NCBI RefSeq assembly: GCF_004010195.1
Contig: NC_057718.1
Coordinates: forward strand, 43,585,970 to 43,649,969
Direction of reading: 5' to 3'
Origin: Chiloscyllium plagiosum
Lineage: Eukaryota
DNA length: 64,000 nucleotides
The translations under genes were made by a program, and so were the position numbers. Each line of letters begins with the position of its first letter. The stretch's first letter is position 1. Positions 7,389 through 55,545 of this stretch are shown piece after piece. The notes beneath the pieces are model-generated. The model was not told where the DNA came from and did no database searches. It saw nothing but the letters and a program-made list of their open reading frames with translations.

Positions 7389-7584
7389 ATTGGAGGCCAG
7401 TGTAAATGCAAGAGATGCATGTCTGGCAGACAGTGTAATCAGTGCCAGGATGGATTCTATAATCTGCGCTTCTCAGACCCTGATGGCTGCATTCCTTGTA
7501 ACTGTAATACCTTTGGGACAGTGAATGGAGATATTACCTGTCACCAAAATTCAGGTCAATGCAAGTGCAAAGCAAATGTTATCA
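7389..7584 (+). CDS. USH2A: USH2A exon 12 homolog, open and intact (laminin-EGF); whether it is still translated is unknown
   Basis: ctctttag|ATT...ATC A|gtaggt; 196 nt. Translates IGGQCKCKRCMSGRQCNQCQDGFYNLRFSDPDGCIPCNCNTFGTVNGDITCHQNSGQCKCKANVI versus recalled human IGGQCNCKRHVSGRQCNQCQNGFYNLQELDPDGCSPCNCNTSGTVDGDITCHQNSGQCKCKANVI. Confidence 0.93.
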
Positions 7585-9540
7585 GTAGGTGAAATATAAG
7601 ATTTTGTGTATCATATCCTGCTGGTTATGAATTTGACCCTAAGTTTGTCAGTCACTAACCATTCTTATGAAGAAATTAAACAAATGTTTGCTAAACATCT
7701 CAGACACATATGAAAGGTTATAATTATCTGATGTATTCTGAACACACAAGTCATCTATATAATTGCCTTTAAAGTCCAGTTTAAAGTACTATTTCAAACG
7801 ATTTGCATGCGGTGAGGTACTTTATGATAAATCTTTTCATTCTGTTACTATATGCCTTTGAACAATTCTTATGAAACGCAAGAGACTTATCTTTACTTCA
7901 AAGATCATACGTATGTGGTTAGTTATCAAGGGCCAGATAATTTTAATTTTGCAATTCACTGCCAAGTTGATTATAACAAACTACCATATTCTCTGTTATT
8001 TATCATGTTTTTGTGATACTTGCTTTTATGTTTTGCGGTTCCCACTGGTATTTTCAGAAATTAGATTTGATTAAAGCAATTTGTTACCTGCAACTTACTG
8101 GAAGGTAGTAACAGCTACATGGGGCAAAATTTATCAAGTGCTCAAAATACATTGTGTGTATAATGCACTTTGAAATTTTGATGTATGGGAATATTATGCA
8201 GGGAGCATTCCTGATAAAGTGTGCTTTGCATTGTAGCAGAACGTGTCCCAGTCCATACATATGGATCAAAAAAATTTACCATTTCATTTGCATAGCAGTT
8301 AGCTTTAAATGCTGTTTCTAAAATAGTCCCTGATTAAAGCTAATGTGGATTGTAATGAACAACATTAAGCAACAGTGCAGAGATGTGAAGAAGACTTATG
8401 AAATGTGATCGGGTTTGATGTTGAAGGATATTTGATAACCTTTTCTGCTACACTGGAAAATCTTTATTGCTATTATTATTTCTACCTTTGTTATCAAGCT
8501 GAGCTCCAGAAATAGAATTTGATAAAGCTAGTAATGGCTGAATTATATTCTTGGTGATCCACTGCTGTTTTGAACCTTATATCCATTATCATCATTGTTG
8601 TTTCCTTGTTATTCATAAAAAGAACTTCATAACACCATTACATTTTGAAGTATGTGGTACAAGAGTGGTGCACAAGAGGTTGATTTTTACTACAGTTAAT
8701 ATGGTTGTACAATTGTGTTGTAAATGAATTATTCAATACAAAGAAATTTGTAAAGTAGGTCACTTATCTAGAATAAAAAGTGACAGGTAGAGATTGTGCC
8801 TTAAATGCCTAATGGATCTGGAAACCTCTCCCTACTTTCTTGTTAACCCTGTAAGAAACTGAACGCGATGCCCTGTAGGCTTTGCTCAGTAACGCTGGAG
8901 ACAGATTAGCTGTCATGAACATGCATGACAAATTCAAATAAGTGCTATGTATATTTTTAGAAATGATGAGGTGAATCCCTCTAGACTGATTTTAATAGTT
9001 TGGAATGAGTCATAACTCTTTTCACAATACAGTTACTTTAAAATTTGTAGTGTTGCTGGTACTTTTATTTTTCTTACTGAAATTAAATGTTATGCCTTAG
9101 GTAAGTCATCAATCATAGTGCAAGCAGTTGCTTTCTGCTGAACTTCTTACTGCATTTTTATTCTAGTGTAATATATTATTTCACATACCATGTTTTCAAG
9201 TGTAACAGATTTTTGCATTTTTGAGATAATGGAAATAAATTTAACCTGTTGGATGTCTATACTAACTGAAGGCAATGTTAATCAGATGCATAGGAAACTA
9301 CACTTAAAATTGTAACTTATGTTTTTTTTACTGTTTCATTTCTGTTGGTAGATTCACAGATATAATTCTAAAAGGTTCCTAGAATAACAGTTGCTCCATT
9401 TAAAACATTTTTGAGAATATATGCAATTAATATTTGAACATTAAAAATTTATACCGCCAAAATTCACATATGAGCAAGCATGATTGATTTCTAATTTTCA
9501 TTTTTATTATTTATTGTTTTGCATTTTAAACTTCTTTCAG

Positions 9541-10186
9541 GAATAAAATATCAACAGTGCAACTTTGGCATCAAACTACCGAACAGTTCACATTCAGACA
9601 AATGTGAACCAGGTAACTGCAATATTAATGGTTCTGCAAACCAGATCTGTACTCCCTTGCAGTGGACAGTGTAACTGCAAGGCAAACATCAAAGGATTTC
9701 AATGTGACACTTGCATTGGGTAATTTCTGTGGACTCGATGCAGGTGACTGTGAGGCTTGTGAGTGTGACTCAGCAGTATCAGTCCTTGGATTCATAAATG
9801 ACTCGAAAACAGGTCAGCGTGTTTGCAAACCTAACATTGAACTACAGTGGTGTGACATTTGCCGAGATGGCTATTACAATCTATGTTCAAGTAACTCCTT
9901 GGCCTGTTTACCTTGAAATTGTGACAAAGCAGGTACACTAAATAGATCAAGTGGTTGTGATAAATCCACAAGCCAATGTCTATGTAAGACCAATGTTACA
10001 GATCTACATTGTGACCAGTGTATTCCTCATACCTTTAACATGAGCTCATCTAATTTGAAAGCAGTCATTGGTGTAACTGTGATTCTATAGGGGCAGTGGA
10101 AGGAATGGTCTATGACCAAAAAGCAGCAGCCAGTGTTTTTTGCCAACTGAATTTCCATGGAAGACAGGGTGACCAGTGTAGACCAG
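9541..10186 (+). pseudogene. USH2A: USH2A exon 13 remnant (laminin-EGF repeats), disabled
   Basis: Acceptor ctttcag ends at 9540. Peptide blocks CNFGIK..CEPGNCNINGSANQIC / SGQCNCKANIKGFQCDTC / NFCGLDAGDCEACECD..CLP*NCDKAGTLN..HGRQGDQCRP. Frameshifts near 9660 (+1), 9721 (+1), 10061 (-1) and 10122-10140; TGA at 9914-9916; donor reads ttaagt. 646 nt versus recalled 642. Confidence 0.93.
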
Positions 10187-10384
10187 TTAAGTGCAAATAT
10201 AGTATTGCAGATGGATCAGTTTGCTGATAAAGTGATTGATACATTGAATTTAAGACCTAATATAATGAGTGAGTGAAAAATTCTGGTACTGAGGCAATGT
10301 TTTTTGCAGACCTCTTTCAGATGTGAATACAGTAATCTCCAGTGTTCTTGGATTACTGATAAGACGTAATATATATAAAAAAAA

Positions 10385-11990: not shown

Positions 11991-12656
11991 AGCGGGCTTT
12001 TTCCTCAATATTTGTTTGTACAAGTAAATTATATAACTTTTGAATATGTGTAACTTGTGTGAAAATGCTGAATATGTTTTATAATTGCTATTTTTGATTT
12101 CTACTAAAGTATCCAATGTAATTTAAATTCATAAATTTCCTTGTCATAAATGCACCCAACCACAGTTAAGTGATGTGTCAACCGAATCCAGAAATATGTG
12201 CACATTCAGGAATATACAGTTTAAGGACAATTCTGGAGCATTCTGCCTGACTTGCACATTGGTGAACAAAACAAATATTATACTGCTAAGCAACCCAATC
12301 TCTGTTAATAATGCACATTGTAACTATGCAAAGTGTTAAAAGTAATAGCCAAAATAAATAGCTAACTAATTCAAGGGCAATGGCTGAAGGGAATGGCGTA
12401 TAAGCATATATTAAGGTTTGGCACTGGTGCTATCAGCACAATAGTCTCTTTCAATCCTGCATGACATAACTATTCTGTTCAGCATGAAATTTGCATTCAT
12501 TTGGCCTGTCAACTGGGTGCCATTTATATATGGAATGCTATCTGCAGTGTGCACGAGGTCATTTTTTTTGTGATAAGTATTACTTTTTTAGGCAGTCTGT
12601 TCAGCTCAAAGATGACTTGGCTCTACTTCCACTCCTATGTCTTATGGTCTTATAAT

Positions 12657-14899: not shown

Positions 14900-15590
14900 A
14901 AAATTGATCTCCTACTGTCAACACCCTGGAATTGCTGTTGATCAGAAACTGAATTGGACTAGCTATATAAGTATTGTGTCTACAAGAGAAGTTCAGAGGC
15001 TATGAATATTGTAGTGAGTAACCCATCTCCAGACTCTGCAAAGTTTGTTTACCATCTTCAAGGCACAAGCCAGGGGTGTGATGGAATATCCCTCCTTTAT
15101 TTGGATGAATGCAGCTTAAACGACATTCAAGAAGCTTGACACTTTCCAGGACAAAGCAGCCTGCTGGATTGACACCACATCCACAAACATTCAGTTCCTT
15201 CAGTGCAGACGTTCTGTAGCAAGTGTGTGCCATCGACATGATGCACTGCATGAATTCTCCAAGACTCCTTAGTCAGCACCCTTCTAACCCTGATGAGGGG
15301 CTTATGCCTGAAATATCGTTTCTTCTGCTCCTCGGATGCTGCCTGACCTGCTGTGCTTTTCCAGCACCACACTTTTGACCCTTCTAACCCATAGCCACAA
15401 CTAACTAAAAGGACAAGGGCTACAAAAACAGGGAAACACCACTATTTGCAAGTTCCCCTCCAAACCACACACCATCTTGACTTGGAAATACTTTCTTCAG
15501 TGTCGTTTGGTCAAAACCCTGGAACTCCCTTCCCAATGGCATTGTGGGTCCACTGACAATAAATGGATTGCAGTGATTGTTACTCCTCTG
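14900..15590 (+). mobile_element. Old CR1/L2-group LINE 3' fragment
   Basis: gtgtgatggaatat..ttcaagaagcttgacactttccaggacaaagcagcc; homologous to the copy at 35450-36070. Confidence 0.65.
15291..15377 (+). mobile_element. 87-bp Penelope-derived insert beginning at a hammerhead core
   Basis: 13-bp TSD acccttctaaccc at 15278-15290 and 15378-15390; (C)TGATGA-G-GGGC-TTAT-GCCT-GAAA-TA-TC. Confidence 0.85.
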
Positions 15591-17339: not shown

Positions 17340-17635
17340 AAAGGAACAAGAGCTAGAGGGTATAGATGTAAAGTCATGTGCAAAATAAGAAAGGGTGATA
17401 TGAGTAAAAAAAAACTTTTTCACACAACGAGTAATAAGGGATGAAATGCACTACCTGCAAGTGTGGGAAAAGCAGTTTCAATAGAGTCATTTAAGAGAGC
17501 AGAAGAATATTACTTGGATAGAAATAATGGGCAAGGGTGGGGGAAAATACACAACAATGCCATTAGGTATTGATACTCGTCTGATAAACCAGTGCAGGCA
17601 CAATGGGCCAAATGCAACAATTCTGTGGGCTTCTT
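17340..17635 (+). mobile_element. CR1 LINE 3' fragment
   Basis: aacttttcacacaacgagtaataagggatgaaatgcactacctg corresponds to FFTQRV..WNALP; tail ggcacaatgggccaaatg. Confidence 0.65.
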
Positions 17636-20007
17636 TCTGCTTCATCAGGGTAAGCAGGGAGCATGTCCTATGGCAGCATGGTTGTGAGCCCCAGAGCAGG
17701 GCGTGGGGTAGTGGGTCCCGGGTGGAGACTAGTGCTGGGGAGGCAGTCCTGGGACTTAGCTTGAGTGCCAATAGGAGCAGACTTGGGCTTGGAGCAGAGC
17801 AAGGATGGCTATTGGACTGGGGTCTGGCATGGGTGGAGGCCCTGCACTGAGTTGCTTCAATGTAATGTTTATTTGAAATTTTATACCTGCCTGTAATGTT
17901 GAACCTTTAGCTATAATTTATTTCTAACTTACTTTTTAAACTCTGTAAAGTAATGCAACTACTTTTTATTCCCTCCCCCTTGTAACCAAGACTTGTACCC
18001 AAGGTGGCGCCATAAGAGGCAGACATTGTTAAAGTTTCTCACTGTACTTCTACAATGGAGTACATGTGACAATGAAGGATATTCTATTCTATTCTAAAGC
18101 TTTGAGTGTCCTTTCAAACAAAGTCCGTTGCACCTGCACTCTACTTGGTAGTTAGTCCAAATGCGAATTTTTTTGTCTGCCATTAATTACATACTTGTCC
18201 ACCTTCTCCAAACATCTTGGTGTGAATGCTTCTGAAATTCAGTGAGTCCACAAGCTGCAAGATGAGCTGCCATTTCCTTTTGTACCCAGCTGTTAAAGTT
18301 GCTATCTTACTTTCAATTTGATCCAAAGGGGACCTCTATCTATGCCAACCAGGTCACATGGACATAGATTCAGAAACAAACTTGCATGTGGACAGATGGT
18401 TCTCTGCACTACCCAATTTTATCTCCAATTAAAGCGGTCAGTTTCATACATAACTATCTTAAAAGATTTTACATTCAAAACAAAATGGTATGTGAGCAGT
18501 GTAACCTTTAAAATTTAGTTGTGCGTATTCCACTTTTTCAGTGTACATCCTTTTAAATATTGTTTGCAGCTGTACACTTGTGTTAATTAGCAAGTGCCAA
18601 CTCACATTGTAATGGAAAAGATGTTGTGAGCAACATTGCCAGATTATGAGTCAGGTGGCAACAATTAAAATTTTCCCCATTGTTTCACTCCTTTCCTGAC
18701 TTCATTCATATGCCTTTTATTGATTTAAAATTTTAAGATTAATCTTGAACACAGTGATATTATGTGCAGTTCCATCAATTATTGAATCACTCAGCTCGCA
18801 TTGTAACTTGGCTGCAACTAAATGTACCTCTGTAGGCCCAGAGCTACTGTTAGTTTCAAGTTCCAAAGATATTTTGTAGATTGTCAAGACTAACATATTT
18901 GGCAAGGTCTGCAGAGTAAACAAGTTGACCTTCATTTTTGGGATTTGGTGTTGATGATAAGGCTTTTATTTATTGACCATCACAGAGGAGATTTTTGAAC
19001 AGCTATATTATAGACTGACATAATTAGTAGCTTACTCGACCTGCACAGATCAGTTAAAAAGGAAATGTTGGAGAAAAATCCAAGTCACATTATCGATAAG
19101 CCTGGGTAAAGACAGGCTTTCCACCCTCAGTTGGATTTTTAACATAATGTTAGCTATCTTCACAGTCACATTTACTGTAACCAAATTTTATTTCTAGATT
19201 TTTTTTCCATTTAAATTCCCAAAATACCATAGCAAGATTTTTACTCTACATAAATAGGTTAGTCTTGATAGCATTAAAGTCTGGCCGTATTCTTTAGCCA
19301 ATTAGTTCAACTTTTTGTTTATTAGTTCAGTAATATAACCATGACACCACAGAATCAATACCACAATAGGAAATTCAAATTTCAAATTTACTGCTCTTGG
19401 TTGCATTACTGATTTGCATAAACTGGTGATATCCAGATTAATGGTACTCCACTCTAACTGCAGTCGTTTCCTGAAAAAAAAATGCATTTAATCATTAGTA
19501 ATGGTCCAGTAGCAGGAATCAACTTTATACTATTTGCAGTCTGATATCATGGCAAAATGTAAAACAATTTTCTGCTGTATATGATTGAATTTAAAATGTA
19601 ATTTATATAGATAAGAGTTAAATAATAGATCACCAGTATAAATTGCAGCAATAATGACTAATATAGTAGTTCTTCACAAAATGATCATTTCATTGATCTG
19701 ACAGAATATGTAGTTAATAGTCTATTCCTTAAAATTTCATCTAGACAATATCTAATTCCCAAGGAATAATTGGTTTGTATTTATCACTGTTAAATTACTT
19801 GAGATTTAATTTAGTTCCTTTCCTGCTGATAAAATAAATGACAACTTGACTCTGAATAAAATTTTGTGTTTTATTTAATGGCTTATTCAGTCAATATAAT
19901 TTTAAAATTATTTTCCCGTGATATTACTCTGGCTACTTTCTGATGTTTAACTCTGACTCTCACTTACTCAAATACTTTATTTAAACACTCTTCTGTGATA
20001 AACCAGT

Positions 20008-20670
20008 TAGAGACACAGAGTTGTGCAGCATGGACACAAGCCCTTCAGTCCAATTCATCCATGTCAATCAGATATTGTAAATTAATCTAGTACCATTTGC
20101 CAGCATTTAGCTTATACCCCTTTAAACCCTTCCCATTCACAGAAACCATAGAATTCCTACAGTGTGGAAACAGGCTATTCAGCCCATCAAGTCCACACCG
20201 ATTCTTTGCAGACCCACTCCCCTACTCTATCACTTTAACTCTGCTTATCAGATGGCTAATCTTTTTAACATATGCTTTCCTGAACAATTTCGCATGGCCA
20301 ATCCACCTAACCTGCACATTTTTAGACTGTGGGAGGGAATCGGAGCACCCGGAGGAAACCCACGCAAACCCGAGAAGAATGTGCAAACTCCACACAGACA
20401 GTTTCCCAAGGGTAGAATTGAACACAGGTGCCTGGTGCTATGAGGTCGCAGTGCTAACTGCTAAGCCATCATGCTTCCATCCAGATGCCTTTTAACTGTT
20501 GTAATTGTACCAACCTCCATCACTTCCTCTGGAGCTCATTCCATACATGCACTATCCTCTGCATGAAAAAAGTTGCTCCTTGGGTCTCTTTTCTGTCTTT
20601 CCCTTCCCACCTTAAATCTACGCAATTTAGTTTTGGATTCCCTTACCCTGGGAAAAAAAAGACCTTGTCA
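20008..20670 (-). mobile_element. CR1/HER1 LINE 3' fragment interrupted by an HE1 SINE
   Basis: Matches the CR1 3' end at 45291-45620 on both sides of the SINE. Confidence 0.8.
20141..20477 (-). mobile_element. HE1-type V-SINE
   Basis: tRNA-like head on the minus strand, V-domain tgtgtggagtttgcacattct, CR1-derived tail. Confidence 0.88.
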
Positions 20671-22378: not shown

Positions 22379-22380
22379 TG

Positions 22381-22506: not shown

Positions 22507-22904
22507 TATCAGGCTTCTCTCAATGTTGTTATGTAACTGGTGAATATGTAGAAATAGGTGAAGGTGCACTATCCATTGATTTTCCCCACCCATCCGTGCA
22601 GAAATGCCTGGCTGAACCTTGTATCCCACACTAGTGATCAGAAGTAGCACATACAAGGCATTGTGTATGTGATCCTCAGCGTGGCTGCTTGTGGTGCAGT
22701 ACGTTCATGCAGAAGTCCACTGTGTGAATGTAAGTTAAGATAAAAGTTTATTTTACCACATAGATTCAATTAGGTCAACGATGTGTACACATAGCTTTAA
22801 CGTCATTTTTTAATAACTTCTCAGTGAACTGGCTGTCCTGTCCTCCTATAAATGTGTATCACCTTCCAAATCCAAATATAATTATTTATGTAATGCATTT
22901 TTAG

Positions 22905-23072
22905 GTTTTGTACATCCTTCAGTTAATTTCACTGATTGTTTGCCATGTGAGTACCATCTAATAGGATCAAGGCATCAGATTTGTTACAGGACAATCGAGA
23001 CCCTTCAGTGAGTGGGATACACTGTGACCAGAGCAAGGACCAATAATTTGCTTTTAACCCTGAAAATGGAAG
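22905..23072 (+). pseudogene. USH2A: USH2A exon 14 remnant, disabled
   Basis: ttttag|GT TTT. GFVHPSVNFTDCLPCEYHLIGSRHQIC/TGQ/RDPSVSGIHCDQSKDQ*FAFNPENG. Two ~8-nt deletions (168 nt versus recalled 184), TAA at 23044-23046, donor reads gcacgt. Confidence 0.88.
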
Positions 23073-24560: not shown

Positions 24561-26103
24561 TTGTGTGTAAGTGTTGAGCTCAGCTTTCACAGCTCTCCAT
24601 AATATCATCCCTCCTTCCATCCAAAAACCAAAGAAGCAACTATTGCATCCATGTGAGTACTTAATCATGTTGACATTCATGCTATGAATGTAAAAGAATA
24701 GTCAATCTAAGCACAACAGTTACTTGGAAATTCAAAAAAATATCAGTAATAGGTGAATTTCTGGCTGCCTGCCCTCCTTGGTCCGTTTAAATAGTATTTC
24801 AGTATTTCAGTTTAATAAAATAATTAAGTGAGGATGGACTTGAGGAGGGAGGAGGGGGAATTCATTGTGAGGAATACACCAATGGGGAGGTAACCCACCA
24901 TTGCCTAATACAAAGTTACTCAGCTGGATACTTGGTGTGGTCCTTTCCCATCAGCGGTGAAATGGTCCCAAGGCCAGTGGTCCCTCTGAAGCGTCGCCTG
25001 TCTCAGATAAAATTGCACTCGGGGATGACTAGTAAGTTACAGCACATATTACAGCACATGATATTTTACACCACTGTCCCCACCCTCCACTTGTCAATGT
25101 GCTACTGGGGAGAAGTAAAATCCAGACCAGTAGGATGGAAATCCCATGGGGAACTCCATGTTGCATTCTAAATGTAGTGTCAAAACAGTATGTGGTTACT
25201 GCTCACACCATCAGAAATGTTTCAGCAGAACAAATAAGTTAAAAACAAATGACTTAAAAGGACTTTTGAAATTCATTTCTTCAAAACTGTAATACTTAGG
25301 AGTTTACTTCAACAGAAATTTGCATTTCTGTTATATTTTCTAAACAGTTGAATGTGCGTTTTGAATGTTTTCCACTGAACCTGAGATTACTTATTGTACA
25401 CAATCCAGAATTACTTCTGTTTGCCTCAGCAACTTACAGAGCTGTTTATGTTGAATTATATTCAGCATCTTATTGGTAGTCAGTGAGGCTAGTGAGTCTA
25501 GATATATCCAAATGTTATTGAGAAGCACAAAATGGGATGCAAACCAGCATTACACTTTAATTTTCAACATTCAACGTGAACTTCATGCTGCCTTTGTATG
25601 CATTCTTCTTATATGTTTACACCACAGTTTGTGATCATTTCACTATAATATCAATGTCTCATTTTGCCAGATGCCATAGGATGTGACCAAAATAACTTCA
25701 GCTTTAACATAAAGCTGGATAATACATGAGCACTATTTTATTGTAGGTTTGTAGTATTTTTAAATCAGAATGATTAGGTATTTAAATTGGTCTGTTCCTC
25801 TCCTTTCTACTTTGCTATTCTTTCCTTTGCTATGCAGAGGTTTTGGGATAAAACTTTGCATGTGTTCATCCTACAATCCTCATGTACACTACAATTGATG
25901 AAAATAAATGTTAGGTCATTGTCTCCAAAAACAATAGATTTCAAACAAATTGATGAACAAAGTGAGAACTTTTATTTGATACTTTTAAAGTACCATTCGG
26001 TTGTCAAACCCAAGCTAATTTTATAGTGGAGCGATGAGGACAATTTATGATTGTTAATGTTCCACTATGAAAATTACTATGTTGTTGTTCTGTGTATTTA
26101 CAG

Positions 26104-26261
26104 CTGCCAACTATGCAATTGTAACCCTGCAGGCAGTGTTAATAGCACTTGCCACCAAACAAATGGAGCATGTTTCTGTAAGCAGTTTGTAACTGGTTTA
26201 AAATGTGATGTGTGCAATATGAGCCACTTGGATGTGAACAGCACATTTGGCTGCAGTAAAA
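26104..26261 (+). pseudogene. USH2A: USH2A exon 15 remnant; frame open but donor destroyed
   Basis: tttacag|C TGC. CQLCNCNPAGSVNSTCHQTNGACFCKQFVTGLKCDVCNMSHLDVNSTFGCSK. 158 nt (6 fewer than recalled 164); donor reads ataagt at 26262. Confidence 0.92.
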
Positions 26262-27966
26262 ATAAGTCATTATTTTTTCTACAAGTAAATTTATGGCAAG
26301 TATTTACAATTTGATGGTGGAGTATTACAGCTGGGTATTTTTTGACGGTCCCACTGTAGACGTTTGCCATGCCAATACATGTGGCTGAGTACAATTCAAG
26401 ATATTTTTCTCTACTTGAGTGTGCCATTCTAATGTCAGACAGTGTAGTCAGTTGTTTTTGAAAATGTTTTATTTTAGAAATCACTTATGTATGTTACATC
26501 TTATCTTGCATGTATTAAATGTAACAAGAACAGATAGATTGCATTTCTGAATGATAGCACAGCAGGCTAAATGAGTTTGCGATCCTCGCCTGAATCTATA
26601 CAGCTTGGTATGTTTTTCTATGTTAGCAGTGCAGTATAAATGCAAGTTATTGTTGGATGAATGCCAAAATTTAAAAGCATTTCAGCAATTGGTCATAAAA
26701 TGTCCTCGCCAATAAGGGCAACATATTAATGGTCTGGATTGTGCAGGAGCTGGGCATTTCATGGTGTGCTCAGTTAATTAAACATTTCTCTGCATCTTTC
26801 AAGATAAAAATATTTCTGAAAGTACAAGTAGATATTTGCATTCAAGGGCAACAGGGCATCGGGGACCTTTTCAACAAAAGGGCCAACAGTGTATCGCCTC
26901 CAAACAATGAGAGTTAAGGGCTGAGAAAAAGTGAATTCAATGTCACATCAGGTCTTTAAAGAATAATAAGGAAATGGAGAGAAAGATTGAATTAAGATAG
27001 GAAGGAAACATGAGAAACACATTCAAATTTAAAATTCAACGACAATTCACTACCTGAAAAAAATAAAACTATATTTTCAAGTGTTCACTTTTTAACAGTG
27101 ATGAACAACTACCAACAACTTATGCTATTATTTATGGGACTTAATTTTCTATAGCAAGCTTAATCAGCAATTAATATGGACATGCAACAACTTTATAAAG
27201 CTCATGAAAAGATTTAGGATATGCCACTTTCACAAGGCAGATGGCCTGACTGGAAAGAAACTTGTAGTGATTTACAGTTAACAGGCTCATACTCATGAAA
27301 AGTTGTTTGATTTCATAATAATATTCTGTGTATCATTTTTCAACAAAGTTAGGCCAATAATTTTGCTCAGGGCACACTCTCAAAAAAAAATTCTACTTGC
27401 TGCTGCTGCTACTTGTAACCATTTCTGTCAGAGATCTGCAGTCATAGTGTGCCACACATGCCTATCATGTGCCATTCTCACACATATGCACTTTATGTCA
27501 TCTGCAACCCCACTCTATGACATTTTTCATATGACTACACTTAAGTCAACCATTCTTTCTGCTGCCCTCCAATTTGCCATTGAGAGGTAACCTCTGGAGT
27601 TTTCCAACACTGAACAAATGACCAAAGTGCTGACATTTTATTTCTGGATGCCAATTTTTAAGAGTTCTATCTGCTGTTGCAATTCCAAGTGCTTCGTCGT
27701 TTGTCTTATGATTTGTTTATGGAACTTTAGATTCCACATTTCAAAATCCACTTGAGGCTTTGGAGAAATCCAATAAATATGTGAAGAATGGTAGCTCATC
27801 CAAATTGATCCAGTAAAATCTATCGTAAAATGTTGCGTTTGTGAGTATTGACTTCTAGTTATGTTTCATGATTAATGAGATAAAACCTTAAGCAAATGCT
27901 GTAGAATCCTGTTCTCGGTTTTTCTCCTTCATTAATTTCTTCCTCCTTTTCAGAATGGTACCTGCC

Positions 27967-28402: not shown

Positions 28403-28447
28403 TTACATTTTAAAATATGTTAAAAGCTTTATTTTTATTAATTATAG

Positions 28448-28604
28448 TTCCAAATCAGCAACCTATATCAACAGCGTGTTTAGAATTTGACTGCAGTTAA
28501 TATATCATGGAGTCTACCTGATGCACCAAACTCTAATAAGCTCACATATACATTGTGCAGAGATGGAGTACAAATTCATTCAGTTCAGGATACATATCCA
28601 TTTG
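28448..28604 (+). pseudogene. USH2A: USH2A exon 16 remnant (start of first FN3), disabled
   Basis: tatag|TT CCA. PNQQPIST/V*NLTAVNISWSLPDAPNSNKLTYTLCRDGVQIHSVQDTYPF. 2-nt deletion near 28475, TAG at 28481-28483, donor reads ctatat. Confidence 0.88.
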
Positions 28605-29158
28605 CTATATTTTTTTCCTGAAACACTAGAAGTACGTGAAGTACAGAAAATGTTAAAATTTGATGTAATTTTCATTAATTAATTTTCTTACATAATTTGA
28701 AGGAATTTATAAAACTTTAGAATAGATTTCCTTTATCTCTTTTTTTACTCCTTAATTTCAAATTACCAATATATGGTTAAGAGGACGGTCAGATTATTAT
28801 CAAAATTTTTTATTTAAGTGATCTGAACAACTCCTTGACACTTAGGTTAAAACAACGTAAAATGAACTTTATTACCCATACGTTAAGCTGTAATATCACC
28901 AATGGCAATTTCCACACTGCATTTTACAGTTAGATTACAAGTCTAAGTAGAAGTGAATGCTTCTCAAAGTGGATCAGAAGGTAGCTGTTTTGCTATTTCC
29001 TTATGTAAATTTTATTTGAAATCAGCTGTTTCAAAATTAAAGTAAATAATGCTACTTCAGGAGTCAGGCAGCTGAAGTAGGCATCCATGAACTTCTGACA
29101 TTAGTTTGATAGTTCTCATTCTTGTGTTAGTCATAAAGCTGGACATCATGTGTAGGAT

Positions 29159-29355
29159 CGAGAGTGTGGCGCTGGAAAAGCAGAGCAGGTCAGGCAGCAT
29201 CCGAGGAACAAGAGAATCGATGTTTCAGGCAAGAGCCCTGGGCTTTTTCCCGAAACGTCGATTCTCCTGTTCCTCGGATGCTGCCTGACCTACTGTGCTT
29301 TTCCAACACCATACTCTTGACTCTGATCTCCACTATCTGCAGTCCTCACTTTCTC
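29159..29355. mobile_element. Penelope-derived short palindromic insert
   Basis: Inverted arms; perfect 15-bp TSD catcatgtgtaggat at 29144-29158 and 29356-29370. Confidence 0.9.
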
Positions 29356-29719
29356 CATCATGTGTAGGATTGCAACAATTTAGTTTACTTTCTTAATATT
29401 AAACGTTAGAAAGGAAATGTTTTGAATGTAAATACAACTTGCAACAGTTGCAAAACCAGTTGAAATATTTTTATTGCAAATGATTTAAATAAACGAGTAT
29501 ATAACTTTTCTTTTTTAAAACTCTCAAAAGCTTCTGTGATACTGGTTTGGCATCTTACACAAGCCACTGTTATTAAATTGTGGCAAGTAATGTTCATGGT
29601 AGCACAAGGAGCAGTGTTGTTAGATATTGCTGGTTATCTTACTGGATTACTTCAATAGAGTATTGTTGGTTTTGTTTGGATCAATATCAGTTTGGTTAAA
29701 CTGACACCCTCATCAAATA

Positions 29720-29942
29720 GGAGAAAGTGAGGACTGCAGATGCTGGAGATTAGAGCTGAAAATGTGTTGCTGGAAAAGCGCAGCAGGTCAGGCAGCATCC
29801 AAGGAGCAGGAGAATCGACGTTTCGGGCATAAGCCCTTCNNNNNNNNNNNNNNNNNNNNNNNNNNNNNNNNNNNNNNNGTCGATTCTCCTGCTCCTTGGA
29901 TGCTGCCTGACCTGCTGCGCTTTTCCAGGAACACATTTTCAA
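29720..29942. mobile_element. Penelope-derived palindromic insert inside USH2A exon 17 (centre falls in an assembly gap)
   Basis: Near-perfect inverted arms; 12-bp TSD cctcatcaaata at 29708-29719 and 29943-29954. Confidence 0.9.
29840..29878. other. Assembly gap (N run) at the apex of a palindrome
   Basis: Run of N between inverted arms. Confidence 1.
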
Positions 29943-30639
29943 CCTCATCAAATACTTCAGGACCTATTGAGATATACATATTGAATCTACCACTCCAGGC
30001 ATCCTGTGTGTTAGGTGCATTATAAAGTCTTCCAGACATTTGTGACTTTGAATGATTTGATACCTTATAAAGGTACAATTTCACTGTCCAGGCTTGTACT
30101 AAGGGTGGGAACGAAATTGGAAACAAGCCTATTGTGGAAATAACTGAAACAGGCCCTACCTAAAGAACTGGGACACCAAACAATTAAAATGTTCAGCTCT
30201 ACAGAGCTCTTAATTGAACAGACTGCTTCTCCAGAACCTAATGGTAACCTATTTTCTAGCTTGCAAAGTCTAAGAGTATCATCATTAAATGAAAATGTTA
30301 AGCTTCACAAAGTGTGTGAAATGCTGAATTTGAACTAAAAGATTCAATTTATGTGAATTTTAATACTGATATTTAATTGAACTAATTCTTCAGACAATTT
30401 GTCTATCTCTGAAACTATAACAATGCTCAACATATACTTTTAAATGATAACATTATTGCAAACATTTTAGAGTTGGTACAACTTTTTACACTGATAACTT
30501 ATATATGTATATACTAGTTAATAGTGTTTTGACTATTGATTTTATGAATTCAAGATCAGGGCATTTCTTCAGGCCAAATAGGGTTACAAGACAGGGAGAT
30601 AATTGAATCAAGGTGGGATAAGCATATTGACGTAAAGAA

Positions 30640-36269: not shown

Positions 36270-36592
36270 AGAATCTATGCAGTGTGGAAACAGGTCCTTC
36301 GGCCCAACAAGTCCACATCAACCCTCCGAAGAGTATGCCACCCAAACCCGTTCCTCTACATTTACCCTGAGTAATGCACCTAACCTACACATCCCTGAAC
36401 ACTATGGGCAACTTAACATGGCCAATCCACCAAACTTGCACATCTTTGGAATGTGGGTGGAAACCAGAGCACCTGGAGGAAACCCATGTAGACAGAGGGA
36501 GAATGTGCAAACTCCACACAAACATTTGCCTGAGGCTGGAATCGAACCCAGATCCCTGGCAGTGTGAGGCAGCAGTGCTAACCACTGAGCCA
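36270..36592 (-). mobile_element. HE1-type V-SINE
   Basis: tggctcagtggttagcactgctgcctcac head, gggttcgattcc B box, V-domain, CR1 tail. Confidence 0.9.
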
Positions 36593-38678: not shown

Positions 38679-39565
38679 ATGGCTGACAGCAGCAAGCTGG
38701 CATCTTGATTGCCTGATTGGAATCTCAATGTTTTGTGAAGAGGTGGGTTGCCCTCTTTCCTCAAGACCATTAACAGAGACTACAGCAACAGACACTGCCA
38801 GCTTGGTCTGAAATTACCACCTGGGTCAGTGCAATATCCACAATCTAGAGAAATGTCAGTAATGCAGGAAGCAGCTGAATGATTTTCTGTTCTTTGCAAG
38901 TATAAATGTTACCACCTTCTCTCTGCTATTTCACACTCACTGTAACTGTGTTATTGCACCCAAATTCAAATCAGGCTCATGGTCAACCAATATTGCAACT
39001 GCAGGCAGCATCTTCCCTCACTCTTTCTCACCCATCCTAACCCCTAGAATGTTATGCCTACATGTACTCTGTGTTGCCTACTCGGGATACCTCATCCGTT
39101 TCCCTTTACCTGCATCAGGACTAAAAACTGTGTCACCCATTTTCATAGAATCATAGAATGCATATGGTGTGGAGGCAGACCATTCAGCCCATTGAGTCCA
39201 ACCCTCCGAAGAACATCCCACTCAGACCTGCCCACCTACCCTATCCCCGTAACCCCACAGTTCTCATGGCTAACTCGCCTAGCCTGCAAATTCCTGGACA
39301 CTATGGGCAATTTAACATGGCCAACCCACCTAGCTTGCACATCTTTGGACTGTGGGAGGAAATCAGAGTACCCAGAGGTAACCCACGCTGACACGGGGAG
39401 AATTTGCAAACTCAACACAGACAGTTGCCTGAGGGTGGAATCGTACCTGTGTCCCTTGCGCTAAGAGGCAGCAGTGCTAACCACTGAATTTCATCTCACT
39501 TAATTCCTCCCTTTTGTGTTATTCCAGGAGAAAACATCCCATAGTCAGGTGAGGAGAGCCAAGGC
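38679..39565 (+). mobile_element. PIF/Harbinger Myb/SANT accessory gene relic (two exons, HE1 SINE in the intron)
   Basis: MADSSKLAS*LPDWNLNVL..QQQTLPAWSEITTWVSAISTI*RN/Q*CRKQLNDFL; second exon ccag|GAG AAA ACA TCC CAT (EKTSH) at ~39528. Confidence 0.6.
39143..39487 (-). mobile_element. HE1-type V-SINE
   Basis: Same family as 36270-36592; (catagaat) tail. Confidence 0.88.
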
Positions 39566-45290: not shown

Positions 45291-46588
45291 CATAGATAGA
45301 GTCATAGAGATGTACAGCGTGGAAACAGACCCTTTGGTCCAACCCTTCCATGCCGACCAGCTATCCTAACCCAATCTAGTCCCACCTGCCAGCATCTGGC
45401 CCATATCCCTACAAACACTTCCCATTCATATTCCCATCCAGATGCCTTTTAAATGTTGCAATTGTACCAGCCTCCACCACTTCCTCAGGCAGCTCATGCC
45501 ATACACGAACCATCTTCTGTGTGAAAAAGTTGCACCTTAGGTCTCTTTTGTATCTTTCCCCTCTCACCCTAAACCTATGCCCTCTAGTTCTGGACTCCCC
45601 AACCCCAGGGAAAAGACTTTGCCTATTTATCCTATCCATGCCCCTCATAATTTTGTAAACCTCAGCCTCTGACACTCCAGGGCAAACAGGCTAGCCTGTT
45701 CAGCCTCTCCCTATAGCTCAAATCCTCCAATCCTGGCAACATCCTTGTAAATCTTTTCTGAACCCTTTCAAGTTTCACGACATCTTTCTAACAGGAAGGA
45801 GAATGGAATTGCACACAATATTCCAACAGTGGCCTAACCAATGTTGTGTACAGACACATCATGACCTCCCAACCCCTGTACTCAATATTCTGACCAATAA
45901 AGGAAAGCATACCAAATGCCTATTTCACTATCCTATCTACCTGCGATTCCACTTTCAAGGAGCCATGAACCTGCACTCCAAGGTCCCTTTGTTCAGAAAC
46001 ACTCCCTAGGACCTTACCATTAAGTGTATAAGTCCTGCTAAGATTTTCTTTCCCAAAATGCAGCACCTCGCATTCATCTGAATTAAACTCTATCTGCCAC
46101 TTCTCAGCCCATTGGCCCATCTGATCAAAATCCTGCTGTAATTTGAGGTAACCTTCTTCGCTGTCCATGACACCTCCAATTTTGGTGTAATCTGCAAACT
46201 TACTAACTGTACCTCTTATGCTCGCATTCAAATCATTTATATAAATGACAAAAAGTAGAGGGCCCAGCACTGATCCTTGTGGCACTCCACTGGTCACAGG
46301 CCTCCATTCTGAAACACAACCCTCCACCACCACCCTCTGTCTTCTACCTTTGAGCCAGTTCTGTATCCAAATGGCTAGTTCTCCCTGTATTCCATGAGAT
46401 CTAACCTTGCTAATCAGTCTCCCATTGGGAGCCTTGTCAAACGCCTTACTGAAGTCCATATAGATCACAACTACTGCTCTGCCCTCATCAATCCTCTTTG
46501 TTACTTCTTCAAAACACTCAATCAAGTTTGTGAGACATGATTTCCCACACACAAAGCCATGTTGACTATCCCTACTCAGTCCTTGCCT
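45291..46588 (-). mobile_element. CR1/HER1 LINE, 5'-truncated, RT domain largely open
   Basis: ORF 45920-46552 YMDFSKAFDK..SGVPQGSVLGPLLFVIYINDL..KFADYTK; (ctatgact)n tail. Confidence 0.95.
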
Positions 46589-46850
46589 AATAGAATGTTT
46601 ACGTTTTTTGTGATGTTTTTGCTAAATAATATCTGGTACGTGCAAGGCTAGTTGCAAATGCATATTTTCCACTTGCTATTTTTGTTAGATATGTTAGGCT
46701 AACCAGATTTAACTTATTGCATTTAACAGGAATCTGCATTTAATTCAGTAGTTGTAATTTGAGTAATGTCACCTTGAAAGTAGTGTTGAGGGGTAAATGG
46801 GAAGTGGTAAAATGTGCAAATATAAATTTCTAACCTAAATTTCTTCCGAG

Positions 46851-47125
46851 GAATAATAATTTAATATGAACTAAGCATGTGAGAATTCTTACAACCAGAT
46901 GGGTTGTATAATCCTCCTCAAAGATGCATTTTTCAAGACAGTGGATTCTTTAACCTTTAATCAAACTTAGAACCACGTTATGAAAATACATCAATTCCAC
47001 CACAGACTCATACAACGCTTACTAATTTAGCACCATTTACTGTGTATGAATTTCAAGTGCATGCAATTAATATGGCAGGCACTGCACTCTCTCTCAGTGG
47101 GTACCAGGATAAACTGCAGAAACTG
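46851..47125 (+). pseudogene. USH2A: USH2A exon 18 remnant (FN3), four stop codons
   Basis: ttccgag|GA ATA. GIII*YELSM*EFLQ..IFQDSGFFNL*SNLEPRYENTSIPPQTHTTLTNLAPFTVYEFQVHAINMAGTALS/QWVPG*TAET G|gttagt. Stops at 46862, 46880, 46958 and 47110; +2 slip in the CT run near 47090. Confidence 0.92.
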
Positions 47126-48670
47126 GTTAGTATTAACAAATTTTATCAACTGATTTACAGAATATATGAATACAATTGTAATTTGTCATTTATTTAGTAA
47201 TGCAGCAGTCAAATATTTTATTTGATTAATATGTTTGATTGTATAGTGCATAAAATGCAGTTGTATTTTTGATTCAGATAAACACATAGCCATGGTGAAT
47301 CAGATGTTAATCACAGGCCAGTTAGAGTACAAAGGCAGGTCAATTTTAACAAACTTTTTCTATTCTTTTCAATTAAATATTCTCTACCTTCATGGATAAC
47401 AAAAAATATGGAAATGCTACTTAATTTATTACTCGAATGCAAAGAGCAATTCAAAACAGTTTAACAAATAAGTTCTGTTTTTGGAAGAAGGTGTAAAACT
47501 AGCTGTCAACTCACTTTGAGCTTGTTTTGTTATTGGCGCAGAGCAATTTTGCAACAATTATCCATTTTGTAATGAAAATAGAATTAACTTTCTTAACTTC
47601 TGTTAATAGTTCAATAATCCAGAGTAGAAACTGCTCCAATGTATCAGCATCATGTTGGAGATGAATGGGAACCAACATTTCACAGTGGCCGTTTCCTGTG
47701 GCCTGCTACAGGGTCCTTCTCACCTGATTGGAAGGCAAACTTGTCAATCAGGCTAACATCCAGGCAAGTGGTCTGCCAATAATAGAAGAAGCATGTTATT
47801 GCTGCAGCATGTGGTTCTTTTTGTGTTTCTTGTCTGATACTCTGCCTTGTCTATGTTTCCTATCCCATTAACCAAAGATGCTGGAAGGAGAAAATGATTT
47901 GAGAGAATAAAGAGCAAAGAAGAAAGAAGGTAAGATAGAAGAGCAACCAGCAAGACAGAAGAAAATAATTAGCCGAAGGAAAAGGAGTCCAGAGACCGTT
48001 CCACTACTTTTATTTGGTCCATGAGCAATACCATAGGAAGACAACTAGGAGTTAGTTATCATTGTTTATATTAAATATGTTTATACTCTGCTTTGAAAAT
48101 TAATTTATTTATTTATCTATGTGTCAACTTATATGTCTAGAATATTTTAGCATGGTTCATAGATCTAGCACAAGAAAATTCAATAATCGTGCTGCAATAT
48201 CATCTTTAATAATACATAGGTTCAATTTGAAAAGGTAAAATTATTCTTTAATGGAGAGTATTGATCGCCAATAGATGCTACTTAAGCAACAATGAACATG
48301 AAAAGGAGTGTATTATAGACTTTTCTTGACAGGTTTCTGAACTGCAACATCCTTGGTAAAGTACACTTGTTCCCCTGAGTAAATTGCTAGATTGACAAGT
48401 TTACATATAAACTAGTTTTAAATTGGGTAAAAGTCAAAGAGGATGAATGCACTGTTGAAAATGAAATGGAAAATCTCATGTTGTTACTGTCAACTTTAAA
48501 ATTACTGTCAAACAGATTTTCAGACAATGACAAGGTGTAATTTAAATGTGTACATTTTCCTTTCTTTTCACTGTTTTTTACAGACAGATATTTTCTGCAA
48601 TTTTTTTCTTGCTTTATCATTTGATGTGCCAGAAACTTCTTTTAAGTTGACATGTCTTTAATCCTTTTAG

Positions 48671-48835
48671 CACCCTTGTTTATGGCTGCACTCAGTTCTC
48701 TCACTCATCATCTGTTTTAAATATCACAAAGGTGCAACTAAGCAACAATTGGGTAAGAGGAGAAGTGATTGGTATATTATCAACATTGATGATAAACAGG
48801 CCACTAATCAATTTGCACTACTGATAATTTCATGA
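48671..48835 (+). pseudogene. USH2A: USH2A exon 19 remnant, frameshifted, donor not recognisable
   Basis: ccttttag|CA CCC. APLFMAA/SVLSL/SVLNIT..NNWVRGEVIG/YIINI versus recalled human APVFMIPPSVFPLSSYSLNISW..NVTRGKVVGYDINM. The 3' end is approximate. Confidence 0.8.
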
Positions 48836-53302: not shown

Positions 53303-53841
53303 AGGACATTGGTAGGCCACTTTTGGAATATTGCATTCAATTCTGGTCTCCCTGCTAGAGGAAAGATGTTGTTAAAATCAAAGATTTGCAGAAAAGATTT
53401 ATAAAGATGTTGCCGGGTTTGGAGGGTTTGCGTTATTGGAGAGCTGGGGCTATTTTCCATGGAGCATTGAAAGTCTTATTAAAAGTACTTTAAATCATGG
53501 GGGGCATGGTTAGGGAGAATAGCCAAGGTTTCTTTCCCAGCGCAAGGGACTCCAAAACTAGAGGCCATAGGTTTAGAGTGAGAGGGGAAAAATTTAAAAG
53601 GGACCTAAAGGGCAACTTTTTCACACAGAGGGTGGAGCATGTGTGGAATGAGCTGCCAGAGGAAGTGATGGAGGCTGGTACAATTACAACATTTTCAAGG
53701 CGTGGGTACATGAATCGGAAGGGCTTAGAAGGATATGGGCCAAATGCTGGCAAGTGGGACTGAATTAATTTAGGAAATCTTGTTGGCAGGTACGGGTTAG
53801 ATCAAATGGTTTGCTTCTGTGCTGTACAGCTCTATGACTCT
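53303..53841 (+). mobile_element. CR1/HER1 LINE 3' fragment
   Basis: RPLLEYCIQFWSP; ORF 53497-53763 TRGHRFRVRGEKFKRDL..WNELP. Confidence 0.92.
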
Positions 53842-54012
53842 GTAAAGGTCTTGAGATGCAGTGATAATATCATTAGTTACTTCACCTCTCAGCTGCTCTT
53901 GAGATGTATCCAAACAGCATGATCAACAATAATTATAGAGCCACCATTTTTTACCTCTTCCTCAAAGCATAAGGTAAAGTAATACTTAATGGTGTAGGAT
54001 TATAACACTAAA

Positions 54013-55058
54013 GTCATAGAGTCATAGAGATGTACAGCATGGAAACAGACCCTTCGGTCCAATCCGTCCATGCCGACCACATATCCCAACCCAATCTAGT
54101 CCCACCTACCAGAACCCGGCACATATCCCTCCAAATCCTTCCTATTCATATACCCATCCAAATGCCTCTTAAATGTTGCAATTGTACCAGCCTCCACCAC
54201 ATCCTCTGGCAGCTCATTCCATACACGTACCACCCTCTGTGTAAAAAAGTTGCCCCTTAGGTCTCTTTTATATCNNNNNNNNNNNNNNNNNNNNNNNNNN
54301 NNNNNNNNNNNNNNNNNNNNNNNNNNNNNNNNNNNNNNNNNNNNNNNNNNNNNNNNNNNNNNNNNNNNNNNNNNNNNNNNNNNNNNNNNNNNNNNNNNNN
54401 NNNNNNNNNNNNNNNNNNNNNNNNNNNNNNNNNNNNNNNNNNNNNNNNNNNNNNNNNNNNNNNNNNNNNNNNNNNNNNNNNNNNNNNNNNNNNNNNNNNN
54501 NNNNNNNNNNNNNNNNNNNNNNNNNNNNNNNNNNNNNNNNNNNNNNNNNNNNNNNNNNNNNNNNNNNNNNNNNNNNNNNNNNNNNNNNNNNNNNNNNNNN
54601 NNNNNNNNNNNNNNNNNNNNNNNNNNNNNNNNNNNNNNNNNNNNNNNNNNNNNNNNNNNNNNNNNNNNNNNNNNNNNNNNNNNNNNNNNNNNNNNNNNNN
54701 NNNNNNNNNNNNNNNNNNNNNNNNNNNNNNNNNNNNNNNNNNNNNNNNNNNNNNNNNNNNNNNNNNNNNNNNNNNNNNNNNNNNNNNNGCCTCCAGTCTG
54801 AAAAACAACCCTCCACCACCACCCTCTGTCTTCTACCTTTGAGCCAGTTCTGTATCCAAATGGCTAGTTCTCCCTGTATTCCATGAGATCTAACCTTGCT
54901 AATCAGTCTCCCAAGGGGAACCTTGTCGAAGTCCTTACTGAAGTCCATATAGATCACATCTACGCTCTGCCCTCATCAATCCTCTTTGTTACTTCTTCAA
55001 AAAACTCAATCAAGTTTGTGAGACATGATTTCCCACGCACAAAGCCATGTTGACTATC
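54013..55058 (-). mobile_element. Young CR1/HER1 LINE spanning an assembly gap
   Basis: IYMDFSKDFDKVP..GIQGELAIWIQNWL; the 3' tail is nearly identical to 45300-45550; gap at 54275-54788. Confidence 0.92.
54275..54788. other. Assembly gap (N run)
   Basis: Run of N inside a CR1 copy. Confidence 1.
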
Positions 55059-55077
55059 ATATTTATTTTGTATACAG

Positions 55078-55545
55078 GTGTTTCATAAAGTAACAGTCAA
55101 AGAGAGATCCTAAACAGTGACAGATTTGAAGCCCTACAGAACTTATAACTTCACAATCTCTGTTGGCAATTGGATTGAATGTGTTTAGATTAGATTACTT
55201 ACTGTGTGGAAACAGGCCCTTCGGCCCAACAAGTCCACACTGCCCCGCCGAAGCGCAACCCACCCATACCCCCTACATTTACCCTTTACCTAACACTATG
55301 GGCAATTTAGCATGGCCAATTCACCTGACCTGCACATCTTTGGACTGTGGGAGGAAACCGGAGCACTCGGAGGAAACCCACGCAGACACGGGGAGAACGT
55401 GCAAACTCCACACAGTCAGTCGCCTGAGGCGGGAATTGAACCCAGGTCTCTGGAGCTGTGAAGCAGCAGTGCTAACCACTGTGCCACCATGCTGCCCATT
55501 AATGTGTTACAAGTGAAATTAGCTCAGGCCAAACATTAGCTGCAG
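55078..55545 (+). pseudogene. USH2A: USH2A exon 20 remnant, split by an HE1 SINE
   Basis: tatacag|GTG. VFHKVTVKERS*TVTDLKPYRTYNFTISVGNWIECV (55078-55185) + TSEISSGQTLAA (55509-55545) = 145 nt, equal to the recalled human exon 20. TAA at 55111-55113; donor reads atatt. Confidence 0.92.
55186..55497 (-). mobile_element. HE1-type V-SINE inserted in USH2A exon 20
   Basis: Full head gggcagcatggtggcacagtggttagc, B box gggttcaattccc, (taatc)n tail. TSD att(g)aatgtgtt at 55174-55185 and 55498-55508. Confidence 0.93.

Follow-up and report, generated by a model that had tools for sequence, protein, structure and literature searches.

The locus described here raises the question of whether a wild vertebrate lineage can live without usherin, the product of USH2A. 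In people, inherited deaf-blindness results most often from loss of usherin, and the retinal responses of a zebrafish null are weakened (PMC8353187). Among the named proteins that we retrieved, usherins range from sponge, mollusc, tunicate, amphioxus and lamprey to mammals. The DNA analysed here (the window, a stretch of 64,000 nucleotides) had been read in the initial annotation as the remains of USH2A and, if this is the only copy, as a natural knockout. Our analysis leads us to regard the USH2A locus of this galeomorph shark as very probably a unitary pseudogene, single and orthologous.

The origin of the sequence is best seen from its exons. A chain of tblastn matches on the + strand runs collinearly through the usherin of Cetorhinus from aa 681 to about 1490-1501, corresponding to exons 12-20 of the human type, and open reading frames in the window carry EGF_laminin and fn3 domains. 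Since nine collinear exons of one 5221-aa protein are recovered at 42-94% identity, chance cannot be their source. The open reading frame of exon 15 has Cetorhinus usherin as its best match among 1.84 billion proteins (E=1.3e-44) and bat usherin as its second (E=2.1e-33), with the usherins of lamprey, Ciona and amphioxus among the further named matches. For the open reading frame of exon 13 a first protein search gave no longer relatives; a library of representatives then returned usherins. In these comparisons the best match is usherin and not laminin, netrin or another EGF-lam protein. The large exon 13 of about 642 nt for EGF-lam 4-8, a hallmark of usherin, is present here; its length is 642 nt in human and 648 nt in zebrafish (PMC8353187).

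The nine exons had been described as standing in the human order with eight of them disabled, and this is borne out by the tblastn chain together with frameshift-aware alignment (Table 1). The window holds nine in-frame stops and at least 14 frameshifts, and the frame is broken in seven of the nine exons; the number of disabled exons becomes eight if one includes exon 15 for its lost donor. The window exons have also lost eleven invariant laminin-EGF cysteines. Three splice donors are lost (exons 15, 16 and 19) and a further one is GC (exon 14). All the lesions reported before, namely at least nine stops, many frameshifts, lost laminin-EGF cysteines, broken splice sites and two transposable element insertions, were recovered in the window.

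Table 1. USH2A exon equivalents and repeat insertions in the window; aa, residues of Cetorhinus usherin
Feature	Position	Strand	Observations
Exon 12 equivalent (aa 681-745)	7389..7584	+	Open frame; 61/65 residues identical; AG and GT present; 10/10 invariant Cys retained; sole fully clean window exon
Exon 13 equivalent (aa 746-959, EGF-lam 4-8)	9540..10185	+	Broken; 151/214 residues identical; 3 frameshifts (near 9660, 9715 and 10058); TGA at 9914 on an invariant Cys; 9/34 invariant Cys lost; 646 nt vs 214 codons in Cetorhinus
Exon 14 equivalent (aa 960-1020)	22904..23072	+	Two frame-breaking deletions; TAA at 23044; GC donor, not GT; of 8 invariant Cys, 2 lost and 2 unaligned
Exon 15 equivalent (aa 1021-1075)	26102..26261	+	Frame open; EGF_laminin E=4.5e-10; 49/55 residues identical; two codons deleted in frame; 9/9 Cys retained; donor ATAAGT, AT where GT is expected
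Exon 16 equivalent (aa 1076-1129)	28447..28607	+	One frameshift near 28483; donor without GT; 36/54 identical
Exon 17 equivalent, 5' part (aa 1130-1164)	29523..29627	+	TAA at 29574; 24/35 identical
Repeat insertion in exon 17	29628..29935	.	308 bp; two head-to-head arms (inverted, 29763-29819 and 29879-29941) around a 39-N gap (29840-29878); copies in window at 1476-1588, 15295-15375, 29165-29356 and 56672-56737
Exon 17 equivalent, 3' part (aa about 1192-1294)	29936..30245	+	TAG at 30012; at least 4 frameshifts; about 40% identity
Exon 18 equivalent (aa 1294-1394, FN3)	46850..47155	+	4 stops: 46862 (TAA), 46880 (TGA), 46958 (TAA), 47110 (TAA); 2 frameshifts
Exon 19 equivalent (aa 1395-1440)	48696..48832	+	Frameshift near 48771; donor without GT in any phase
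Exon 20 equivalent, 5' part (aa 1441-1477)	55075..55185	+	TAA at 55111
SINE-like repeat in exon 20	55186..55502	.	About 317 bp; 8-bp duplication AATGTGTT at both joints; copies in window at 36282-36592, 39298-39486 and 20285-20478
Exon 20 equivalent, resumed part (aa 1476-1487)	55503..55545	+	9/12 identical; E=1.6, a weak match admitted only for its position and the target-site duplication; collinear

The damage extends over the rest of the gene. Matches to USH2A run collinearly on the + strand from C9:43,412,977 to 44,384,052, about 971 kb, and cover in order residues 1 to about 1610 and about 2456 to 5120. The first coding exon has an intact ATG, a stop at codon 12, and three stops and three frameshifts overall. 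Outside the window, 21 of the 32 exon segments bear stops or frameshifts; over 2561 aligned residues, of which 1783 are identical, these add up to 27 stops and 17 frameshifts. For the parts examined inside and outside the window together, the totals are no fewer than 36 stops and 31 frameshifts. With its introns kept, its exons spread over this distance and ESRRG adjacent, the locus is not a retrocopy. As far as the sequence allows a prediction, it should be unable to encode usherin in either the long isoform or the short one. Selection on USH2A very probably ended long ago, and stops, frameshifts, splice-site losses, losses of disulfide cysteines and transposon insertions have since piled up over nearly the whole gene, beginning with the first coding exon.

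In the human map ESRRG lies on the 5' side of USH2A and KCTD3 on the 3' side. The check on synteny that had been proposed turned out positive for the ESRRG side, where ESRRG adjoins the 5' end of USH2A as in birds. Two open nuclear-receptor exons of ESRRG are found at C9:43,278,977-43,282,176 (+), 131 kb upstream and on the same strand. Their identity to the ERR portion of the bird protein P0280, in which USH2A is on the same side of ESRRG, is 96.7% and 89.8%, and their best PDB match is ERR-gamma (E=2e-50) compared to 2.5e-41 for ERR2 (beta). Because ESRRG is adjacent and on the same strand, the C9 copy sits at the ancestral locus. A BTB_2 family search for KCTD3 gave 52 matches and none near C9:44.4 Mb, which is weak evidence given that the domain is split over exons.

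This position bears on the idea that a working USH2A resides elsewhere in the genome, unassembled or collapsed, and that the C9 copy is a decayed spare. With the decayed copy at the ancestral site beside ESRRG, an intact copy would need the duplication of a gene of about 1 Mb and then the loss of the original. Usherin searches of the whole 3.56-Gb assembly found no second USH2A locus, and the knockout reading, which had been made to depend on a sole copy, gains support from the decay of the whole gene and from an assembly that is without another USH2A locus. At full sensitivity the best-kept exons 12 and 15 return only themselves: exon 12 had five matches in the whole assembly (self at 100%, the others at 42-49%), and the exon 15 open reading frame had 71 matches at E<=10, none except self above 45% identity. 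The usherin queries P0279 and P0295 placed 16 of 22 and seven of nine matches on C9, with the remainder at 27-31% and 32% identity, respectively, while P0281 had 12 of 22 matches on C9, one on an unplaced contig and the other nine at 32-49%. The assembly is, however, broken into 101,977 contigs and may be incomplete, and the three long protein queries (aa 1-1995 and 2456-5120) had to pass a stricter first filter, so that some matches were possibly missed; no match off C9 above 57% identity came from them. The one at 57% is an exon for aa 340-409 on an unplaced 18-kb contig, and it illustrates that pieces of the region can stay unplaced. Yet this exon bears a stop and is absent from C9, and the exons on either side of it are separated there by a 10-kb piece with a 500-N run. 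We therefore consider a working second copy to be very improbable.

The decay is uneven, with a chi-square of 110 on 41 df among 42 segments, and one could imagine a locus that is partly living, in which full-length usherin is gone but some exons, notably 12 and 15, or a transcript through them, are still under selection for another role, be it that of an RNA, of a regulatory element or of a small product. Exon 12 differs from Cetorhinus at 4 of 65 positions where 14.2 are expected (z = -3.05), exon 15 at 4 of 53 where 15.8 are expected (z = -3.54), and together they retain 19 of 19 invariant cysteines, compared to 29 of 42 in exons 13-14. Two such well-kept exons are not expected if decay is neutral and simply uniform. 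However, two outliers among 42 segments are modest evidence, and local mutation-rate variation accounts equally well for the pattern. Exon 15 is without a donor and short of two codons, no frame can link it to exon 12, since the exons between and upstream are broken. Furthermore, a search of the window gave no Rfam family at gathering score. A remaining function of this kind is thus very improbable.

The animal might instead have an intact gene, with consensus errors or mis-assembly behind the lesions, but we attach almost no weight to this view. In its favour, there are two N runs in the window, and the exon 17 insertion contains one of them. Against it, all nine window stops arise by base substitution with all three stop codons represented, the residues differ from Cetorhinus by 31.3% compared to 12.6% among intact sharks, a clean target-site duplication of 8 bp accompanies one insertion, the neighbour and control genes are open (no stop in the ESRRG exons, and none in seven of the eight Calx-beta exons on C2), and of the words sampled across exons 12-13 up to 98% recur in samples from another study. 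Indel-type consensus errors cannot explain this pattern. The samples from the other study are three further ones of the same species, which contain 0.80-0.98 of 327 sampled 31-mers from window positions 7300-10300, and two related species contain about 59% of the sampled words; such shares describe the region overall and cannot show individual lesions. None of the runs listed with these words is from RNA, which says nothing either way on whether the gene is expressed.

The genome had been assigned to a shark or ray. The shark part of this assignment stands and is narrowed by our trees to a galeomorph shark, the sequence being placed inside the galeomorphs as sister to mackerel sharks plus ground sharks. 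In published phylogenies this is the place of the carpet sharks (Orectolobiformes). The terminal branch of the decayed copy is 3-5 times longer than the branches of mackerel and ground sharks, and this copy departs from Cetorhinus at 1007 of 3219 positions, where three intact sharks give a baseline of 405.7 over the same columns; both values agree with a gene that was called long-dead. The comparison across elasmobranchs points to a lineage-specific loss, as intact usherin is annotated in nine cartilaginous fishes: Cetorhinus maximus (XP_078412490), Carcharodon, Mustelus asterias, Scyliorhinus canicula, S. torazame, Heterodontus francisci, Pristiophorus japonicus, Heptranchias perlo and Callorhinchus milii. 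The decayed copy shares with them the collinearity of exons over aa 1-5120, the domain order (laminin-EGF then FN3 in the window) and the size of exon 13. In the columns that the window species covers, the intact usherins have open frames and are 84-97% identical to each other, whereas the decayed copy is 67-70% identical to them. The age of the inactivation would be about 10 times that of the divergence from two related species with near-identical DNA, and hence these species should share the USH2A loss. That usherin was lost once, roughly 100 million years ago, by the ancestor of a large clade of sharks, with ADGRV1 retained, can be proposed only tentatively. Neither a carpet-shark nor a ray usherin was among the named proteins retrieved, and for rays this means that they may have lost usherin separately.

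We found no published USH2A loss of this kind in the literature for any vertebrate. A cavefish precedent was considered and rejected, since the Sinocyclocheilus paper gives only two amino-acid changes in Ush2a and no pseudogene. Human exon 13 carries the recurrent mutations c.2299delG and c.2276G>T; in zebrafish, the null allele of ush2a, rmc1, lies in exon 13 as well and reduces the larval ERG (PMC8353187). The human and zebrafish loss alleles have truncating lesions and cysteine losses in exon 13 in common with the shark locus. However, they are single, recent and disease-causing (retinitis pigmentosa or reduced ERG; PMC8353187), whereas in the shark the whole gene has decayed and is presumably fixed in a wild lineage. 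The loss of PXR in some Chondrichthyes, as far as the available part of the source describes it (PMC6539745), is likewise that of a single-copy intron-containing gene that decays at its ancestral locus in one lineage and is retained in sister lineages; gene and pathway differ from USH2A.

If usherin is lost, its partner ADGRV1 might have decayed as well. This suggestion is not supported, as the candidate locus on C2 looks open. It comprises eight separate Calx-beta exons over 270 kb and is named only 'Calx-beta domain-containing' in the protein atlas. We assume that it is ADGRV1 from these exons and from the domain counts of that protein. The ankle links of hair bundles and the periciliary complex of photoreceptors would then be built without usherin, possibly around the retained ADGRV1. 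A wild vertebrate lineage that has long been without usherin would be a natural experiment in compensation, indicating that the machinery of ankle links and the periciliary complex can be formed, or a replacement for it found, in the absence of this protein, and a substitute may be sought in ADGRV1, which is apparently retained, and its partners. Should the loss be clade-wide, a whole group of sharks would manage without usherin although their eyes, ears, lateral line and electroreceptors work. This raises questions about the development of hair bundles in the ear, the lateral line and the ampullary organs and about the maintenance of photoreceptors. Caution is also advisable in annotation, as usherin models that seem to be 'missing' from some shark genomes may be genuine losses.

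In this galeomorph shark, the gene in the window is a genuine unitary USH2A pseudogene that still lies at its ancestral locus. The best match of the open frame 26051-26314 among 1.84 billion protein representatives is a 5221-aa protein (E=1.3e-44) whose source names it usherin from Cetorhinus maximus. In a tblastn alignment, this protein (P0001, our reference for residue numbers) covers the window with a single collinear chain on the + strand, from residue 681 to residue 1501. Of the open frames in the window, Pfam assigns EGF_laminin to two and fn3 to another. The nine exons match human exons 12-20 in size and order. The large exon 13 is 646 nt long in the window, and lengths of 642 nt in human and 648 nt in zebrafish are given in a passage of PMC8353187.

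Lesions were called from a frameshift-aware protein-to-DNA alignment, from the tblastn alignments and by direct reading of codons. In total the window holds 9 stops and at least 14 frameshifts; frames are broken in 7 of the 9 exons, and 8 of 9 are disabled if the donor of exon 15 is counted. The initial annotation had described nine exons, eight of them disabled, with at least nine stop codons and many frameshifts, and we judge this description accurate because of the per-exon alignment, codon and cysteine counts. At positions where all 13 reference usherins have a cysteine, 25 of 34 are retained in exon 13, 4 of 8 in exon 14 (two are lost and two unaligned), and all 19 in exons 12 and 15 together.

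USH2A exon equivalents and exon-splitting inserts in the window
Feature	Position	Strand	Observation
Exon 12	7389-7584	+	Clean; 61/65 identical; AG and GT both present
Exon 13	9540-10185	+	3 frameshifts; TGA at 9914 replaces an invariant cysteine
Exon 14	22904-23072	+	2 frame-breaking deletions; TAA at 23044; donor is GC
Exon 15	26102-26261	+	Open frame, minus two codons; donor is AT
Exon 16	28447-28607	+	1 frameshift; GT donor absent
Exon 17	29523-29627, 29936-30245	+	TAA at 29574; TAG at 30012; at least 4 frameshifts; split by a repeat
Exon 18	46850-47155	+	4 stops; 2 frameshifts
Exon 19	48696-48832	+	1 frameshift; GT donor absent
Exon 20	55075-55185, 55503-55545	+	TAA at 55111; split by a repeat
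Insert in exon 17	29628-29935	.	308 bp; a short and very common repeat present twice, head-to-head around a 39-N gap
Insert in exon 20	between 55185 and 55503	.	Repeat of ~317 bp; flanking duplication AATGTGTT

Several lines of evidence indirectly support that the lesions are real DNA. The stops in the window arose by substitution and use all three stop codons, about one residue in three is different from Cetorhinus, and a target-site duplication is present at one of the two insertions. Frames are open in ESRRG and in other genes of the assembly. The likely source runs contain 0.98-1.00 of 327 words sampled across exons 12-13, and the share is 0.80-0.98 in four runs of another study, which come from three further samples labelled as the same species. 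Other copies of both exon-splitting inserts occur within the window, and an Rfam search of the window returned nothing at the gathering score. On the minus strand at 45920-46621, in the intron that separates exon 17 from exon 18, a 233-aa open frame with a reverse-transcriptase domain (RVT_1, E=2.8e-21) marks a LINE-type element, and fragments related to it flank the N run at 54275-54788.

The decay extends over the whole gene. The assembly (3.56 Gb, 101,977 contigs) was searched with three stored usherin fragments. On C9, the contig where the window occupies 43,585,970-43,649,969, the chicken fragment (aa 1-1995) gave 12 matches, the Scyliorhinus torazame fragment (aa 2456-4115 of P0001) 16 and the Pristiophorus fragment (aa 4040-5120) 7, all ordered on the + strand and many with internal stops. 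USH2A begins at C9:43,412,977 (residue 1) and reaches at least 44,384,052 (residue 5120), about 971 kb. Beyond the window, the analysis covered 200 kb of upstream sequence and, on the downstream side, short pieces around the matches. In the first coding exon the ATG is retained, but codon 12 is a stop, and the exon has two further stops and three frameshifts. For the largest exon (435 residues), the frameshift-aware alignment shows 2 stops and 4 frameshifts, and reading in a single frame gives 6 stops. Of the 32 exon segments that lie outside the window, 21 have a stop, a frameshift or both, with 27 stops and 17 frameshifts over 2561 residues, 1783 of them identical; the whole-gene counts come from residues 1 to ~1610 and ~2456-5120.

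Whole-assembly searches with the three fragments and with the two best-preserved exons found no second USH2A copy. The initial annotation had allowed for an intact duplicate elsewhere, and the usherin search of the whole assembly found none off C9. There, the three long queries gave one match on the contig C96568, and all their other matches fell in genes of FN3 or laminin type, with identities of 27-49%. The searches with the two best-preserved exons were run at full sensitivity. At E<=10 the exon 15 open frame had 71 matches, of which all but its own locus (99%) showed no more than 45% identity, and exon 12 gave 5 matches at E<=0.001, namely itself (100%), exon 13 (42%) and three other loci (44-49%). 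C96568 is an unplaced 18-kb contig whose end carries, at 17490-18000 on the minus strand, the USH2A exon for residues 340-409 (43/70 identical, with a stop of its own). This exon is absent from C9, where the 10-kb piece between the flanking exons has a 500-N run.

A Pfam search of the assembly for the nuclear-receptor ligand-binding domain gave 66 matches, two of which are stop-free exons at C9:43,278,977-43,282,176 (+). Among solved structures they are closest to ERR-gamma (E=2e-50), followed by ERR2 (beta; 2.5e-41) and ERR1 (alpha; 2.7e-29). As a synteny probe we used P0280, a deposited bird 'hypothetical protein' in which an ERR-type ligand-binding domain (residues 89-263) is fused to usherin, probably because a gene model ran through from ESRRG into the adjacent USH2A. 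The two C9 exons show 96.7% (92 aa) and 89.8% (88 aa) identity with its ERR-like N-terminal part. From the ERR-gamma-type translations and this identity we therefore place ESRRG upstream of USH2A on the same strand, ending 131 kb before the first USH2A exon, the same arrangement as in human. Of the two flanking genes proposed for a synteny check, ESRRG thus adjoins the 5' side as expected, and KCTD3 was not found by a BTB_2 domain search of the assembly, a result that is uninformative.

Named usherins are present in the protein collections for nine cartilaginous fishes, which in the usual classification fall in six orders. None comes from a carpet shark, ray or skate, a weak negative, as such species may be absent from these collections; either they are absent, or the gene is not annotated as coding. 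Across 3137 shared columns, identity of the window species is 67-70% with six sharks and 59% with Callorhinchus, and the intact sharks are 84-97% identical among themselves. A maximum likelihood tree (JTT+G4, 1000 ultrafast bootstraps; no ray or carpet shark among its sequences) places the window sequence within the galeomorph sharks, after Heterodontus and as sister to Cetorhinus, Carcharodon, Mustelus and Scyliorhinus; the three nodes that fix this placement each have 100% support. Carpet sharks hold this position in published phylogenies. From the same node, the terminal branch is 0.34 in the window species compared to 0.06-0.10 in the sister lineages. Threading on Callorhinchus, Heterodontus or Scyliorhinus left the placement unchanged (SH-like support 0.996-1.0, branch 0.37-0.39).

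Among the papers listed by searches of 8.1 million open papers and 0.36 million preprints, none describes a loss of USH2A in a shark or another vertebrate; for Ush2a in cavefish, one paper describes two amino-acid changes only. As a lineage-specific gene loss the case is of an ordinary kind, and it is notable for the gene concerned.

By rough hand arithmetic, ~36-38 stops per ~3200-3400 aligned codons correspond to ~0.09 neutral substitutions per site accumulated after constraint ended, and a 21% excess of changed residues per otherwise conserved site to 0.11-0.14. Runs labelled as two other, related organisms contain 0.57-0.61 of the 31-mers sampled from window 7300-10300, or ~1.7% pairwise divergence. 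On these figures the splits from these two organisms would be about a tenth as old as the inactivation, and both would therefore be expected to carry the same dead USH2A.

The initial annotation had also suggested testing ADGRV1 for co-decay. A Calx-beta search of the assembly gave 23 matches, eight of which lie at C2:47,484,767-47,751,745 (+), on another contig, over ~270 kb. This number and spread fit ADGRV1 by its domain counts; the protein atlas names the locus as a Calx-beta protein only. Seven of the eight exons are stop-free, one being open for at least 261 residues, and in the eighth a TAA ends an 80-residue open frame six bases before the match end. The locus is likely ADGRV1, apparently intact, and co-decay is not supported because these exons are open.

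Decay is uneven across segments (chi-square 110 on 41 df), and part of this heterogeneity stems from misaligned frameshifted segments. Exons 12 (4 changes, 14.2 expected, z = -3.05) and 15 (4 changes, 15.8 expected, z = -3.54) are far better kept than the other 40 segments, and their 19 invariant cysteines are all in place. Their preservation could reflect chance, local mutation rate or residual constraint.
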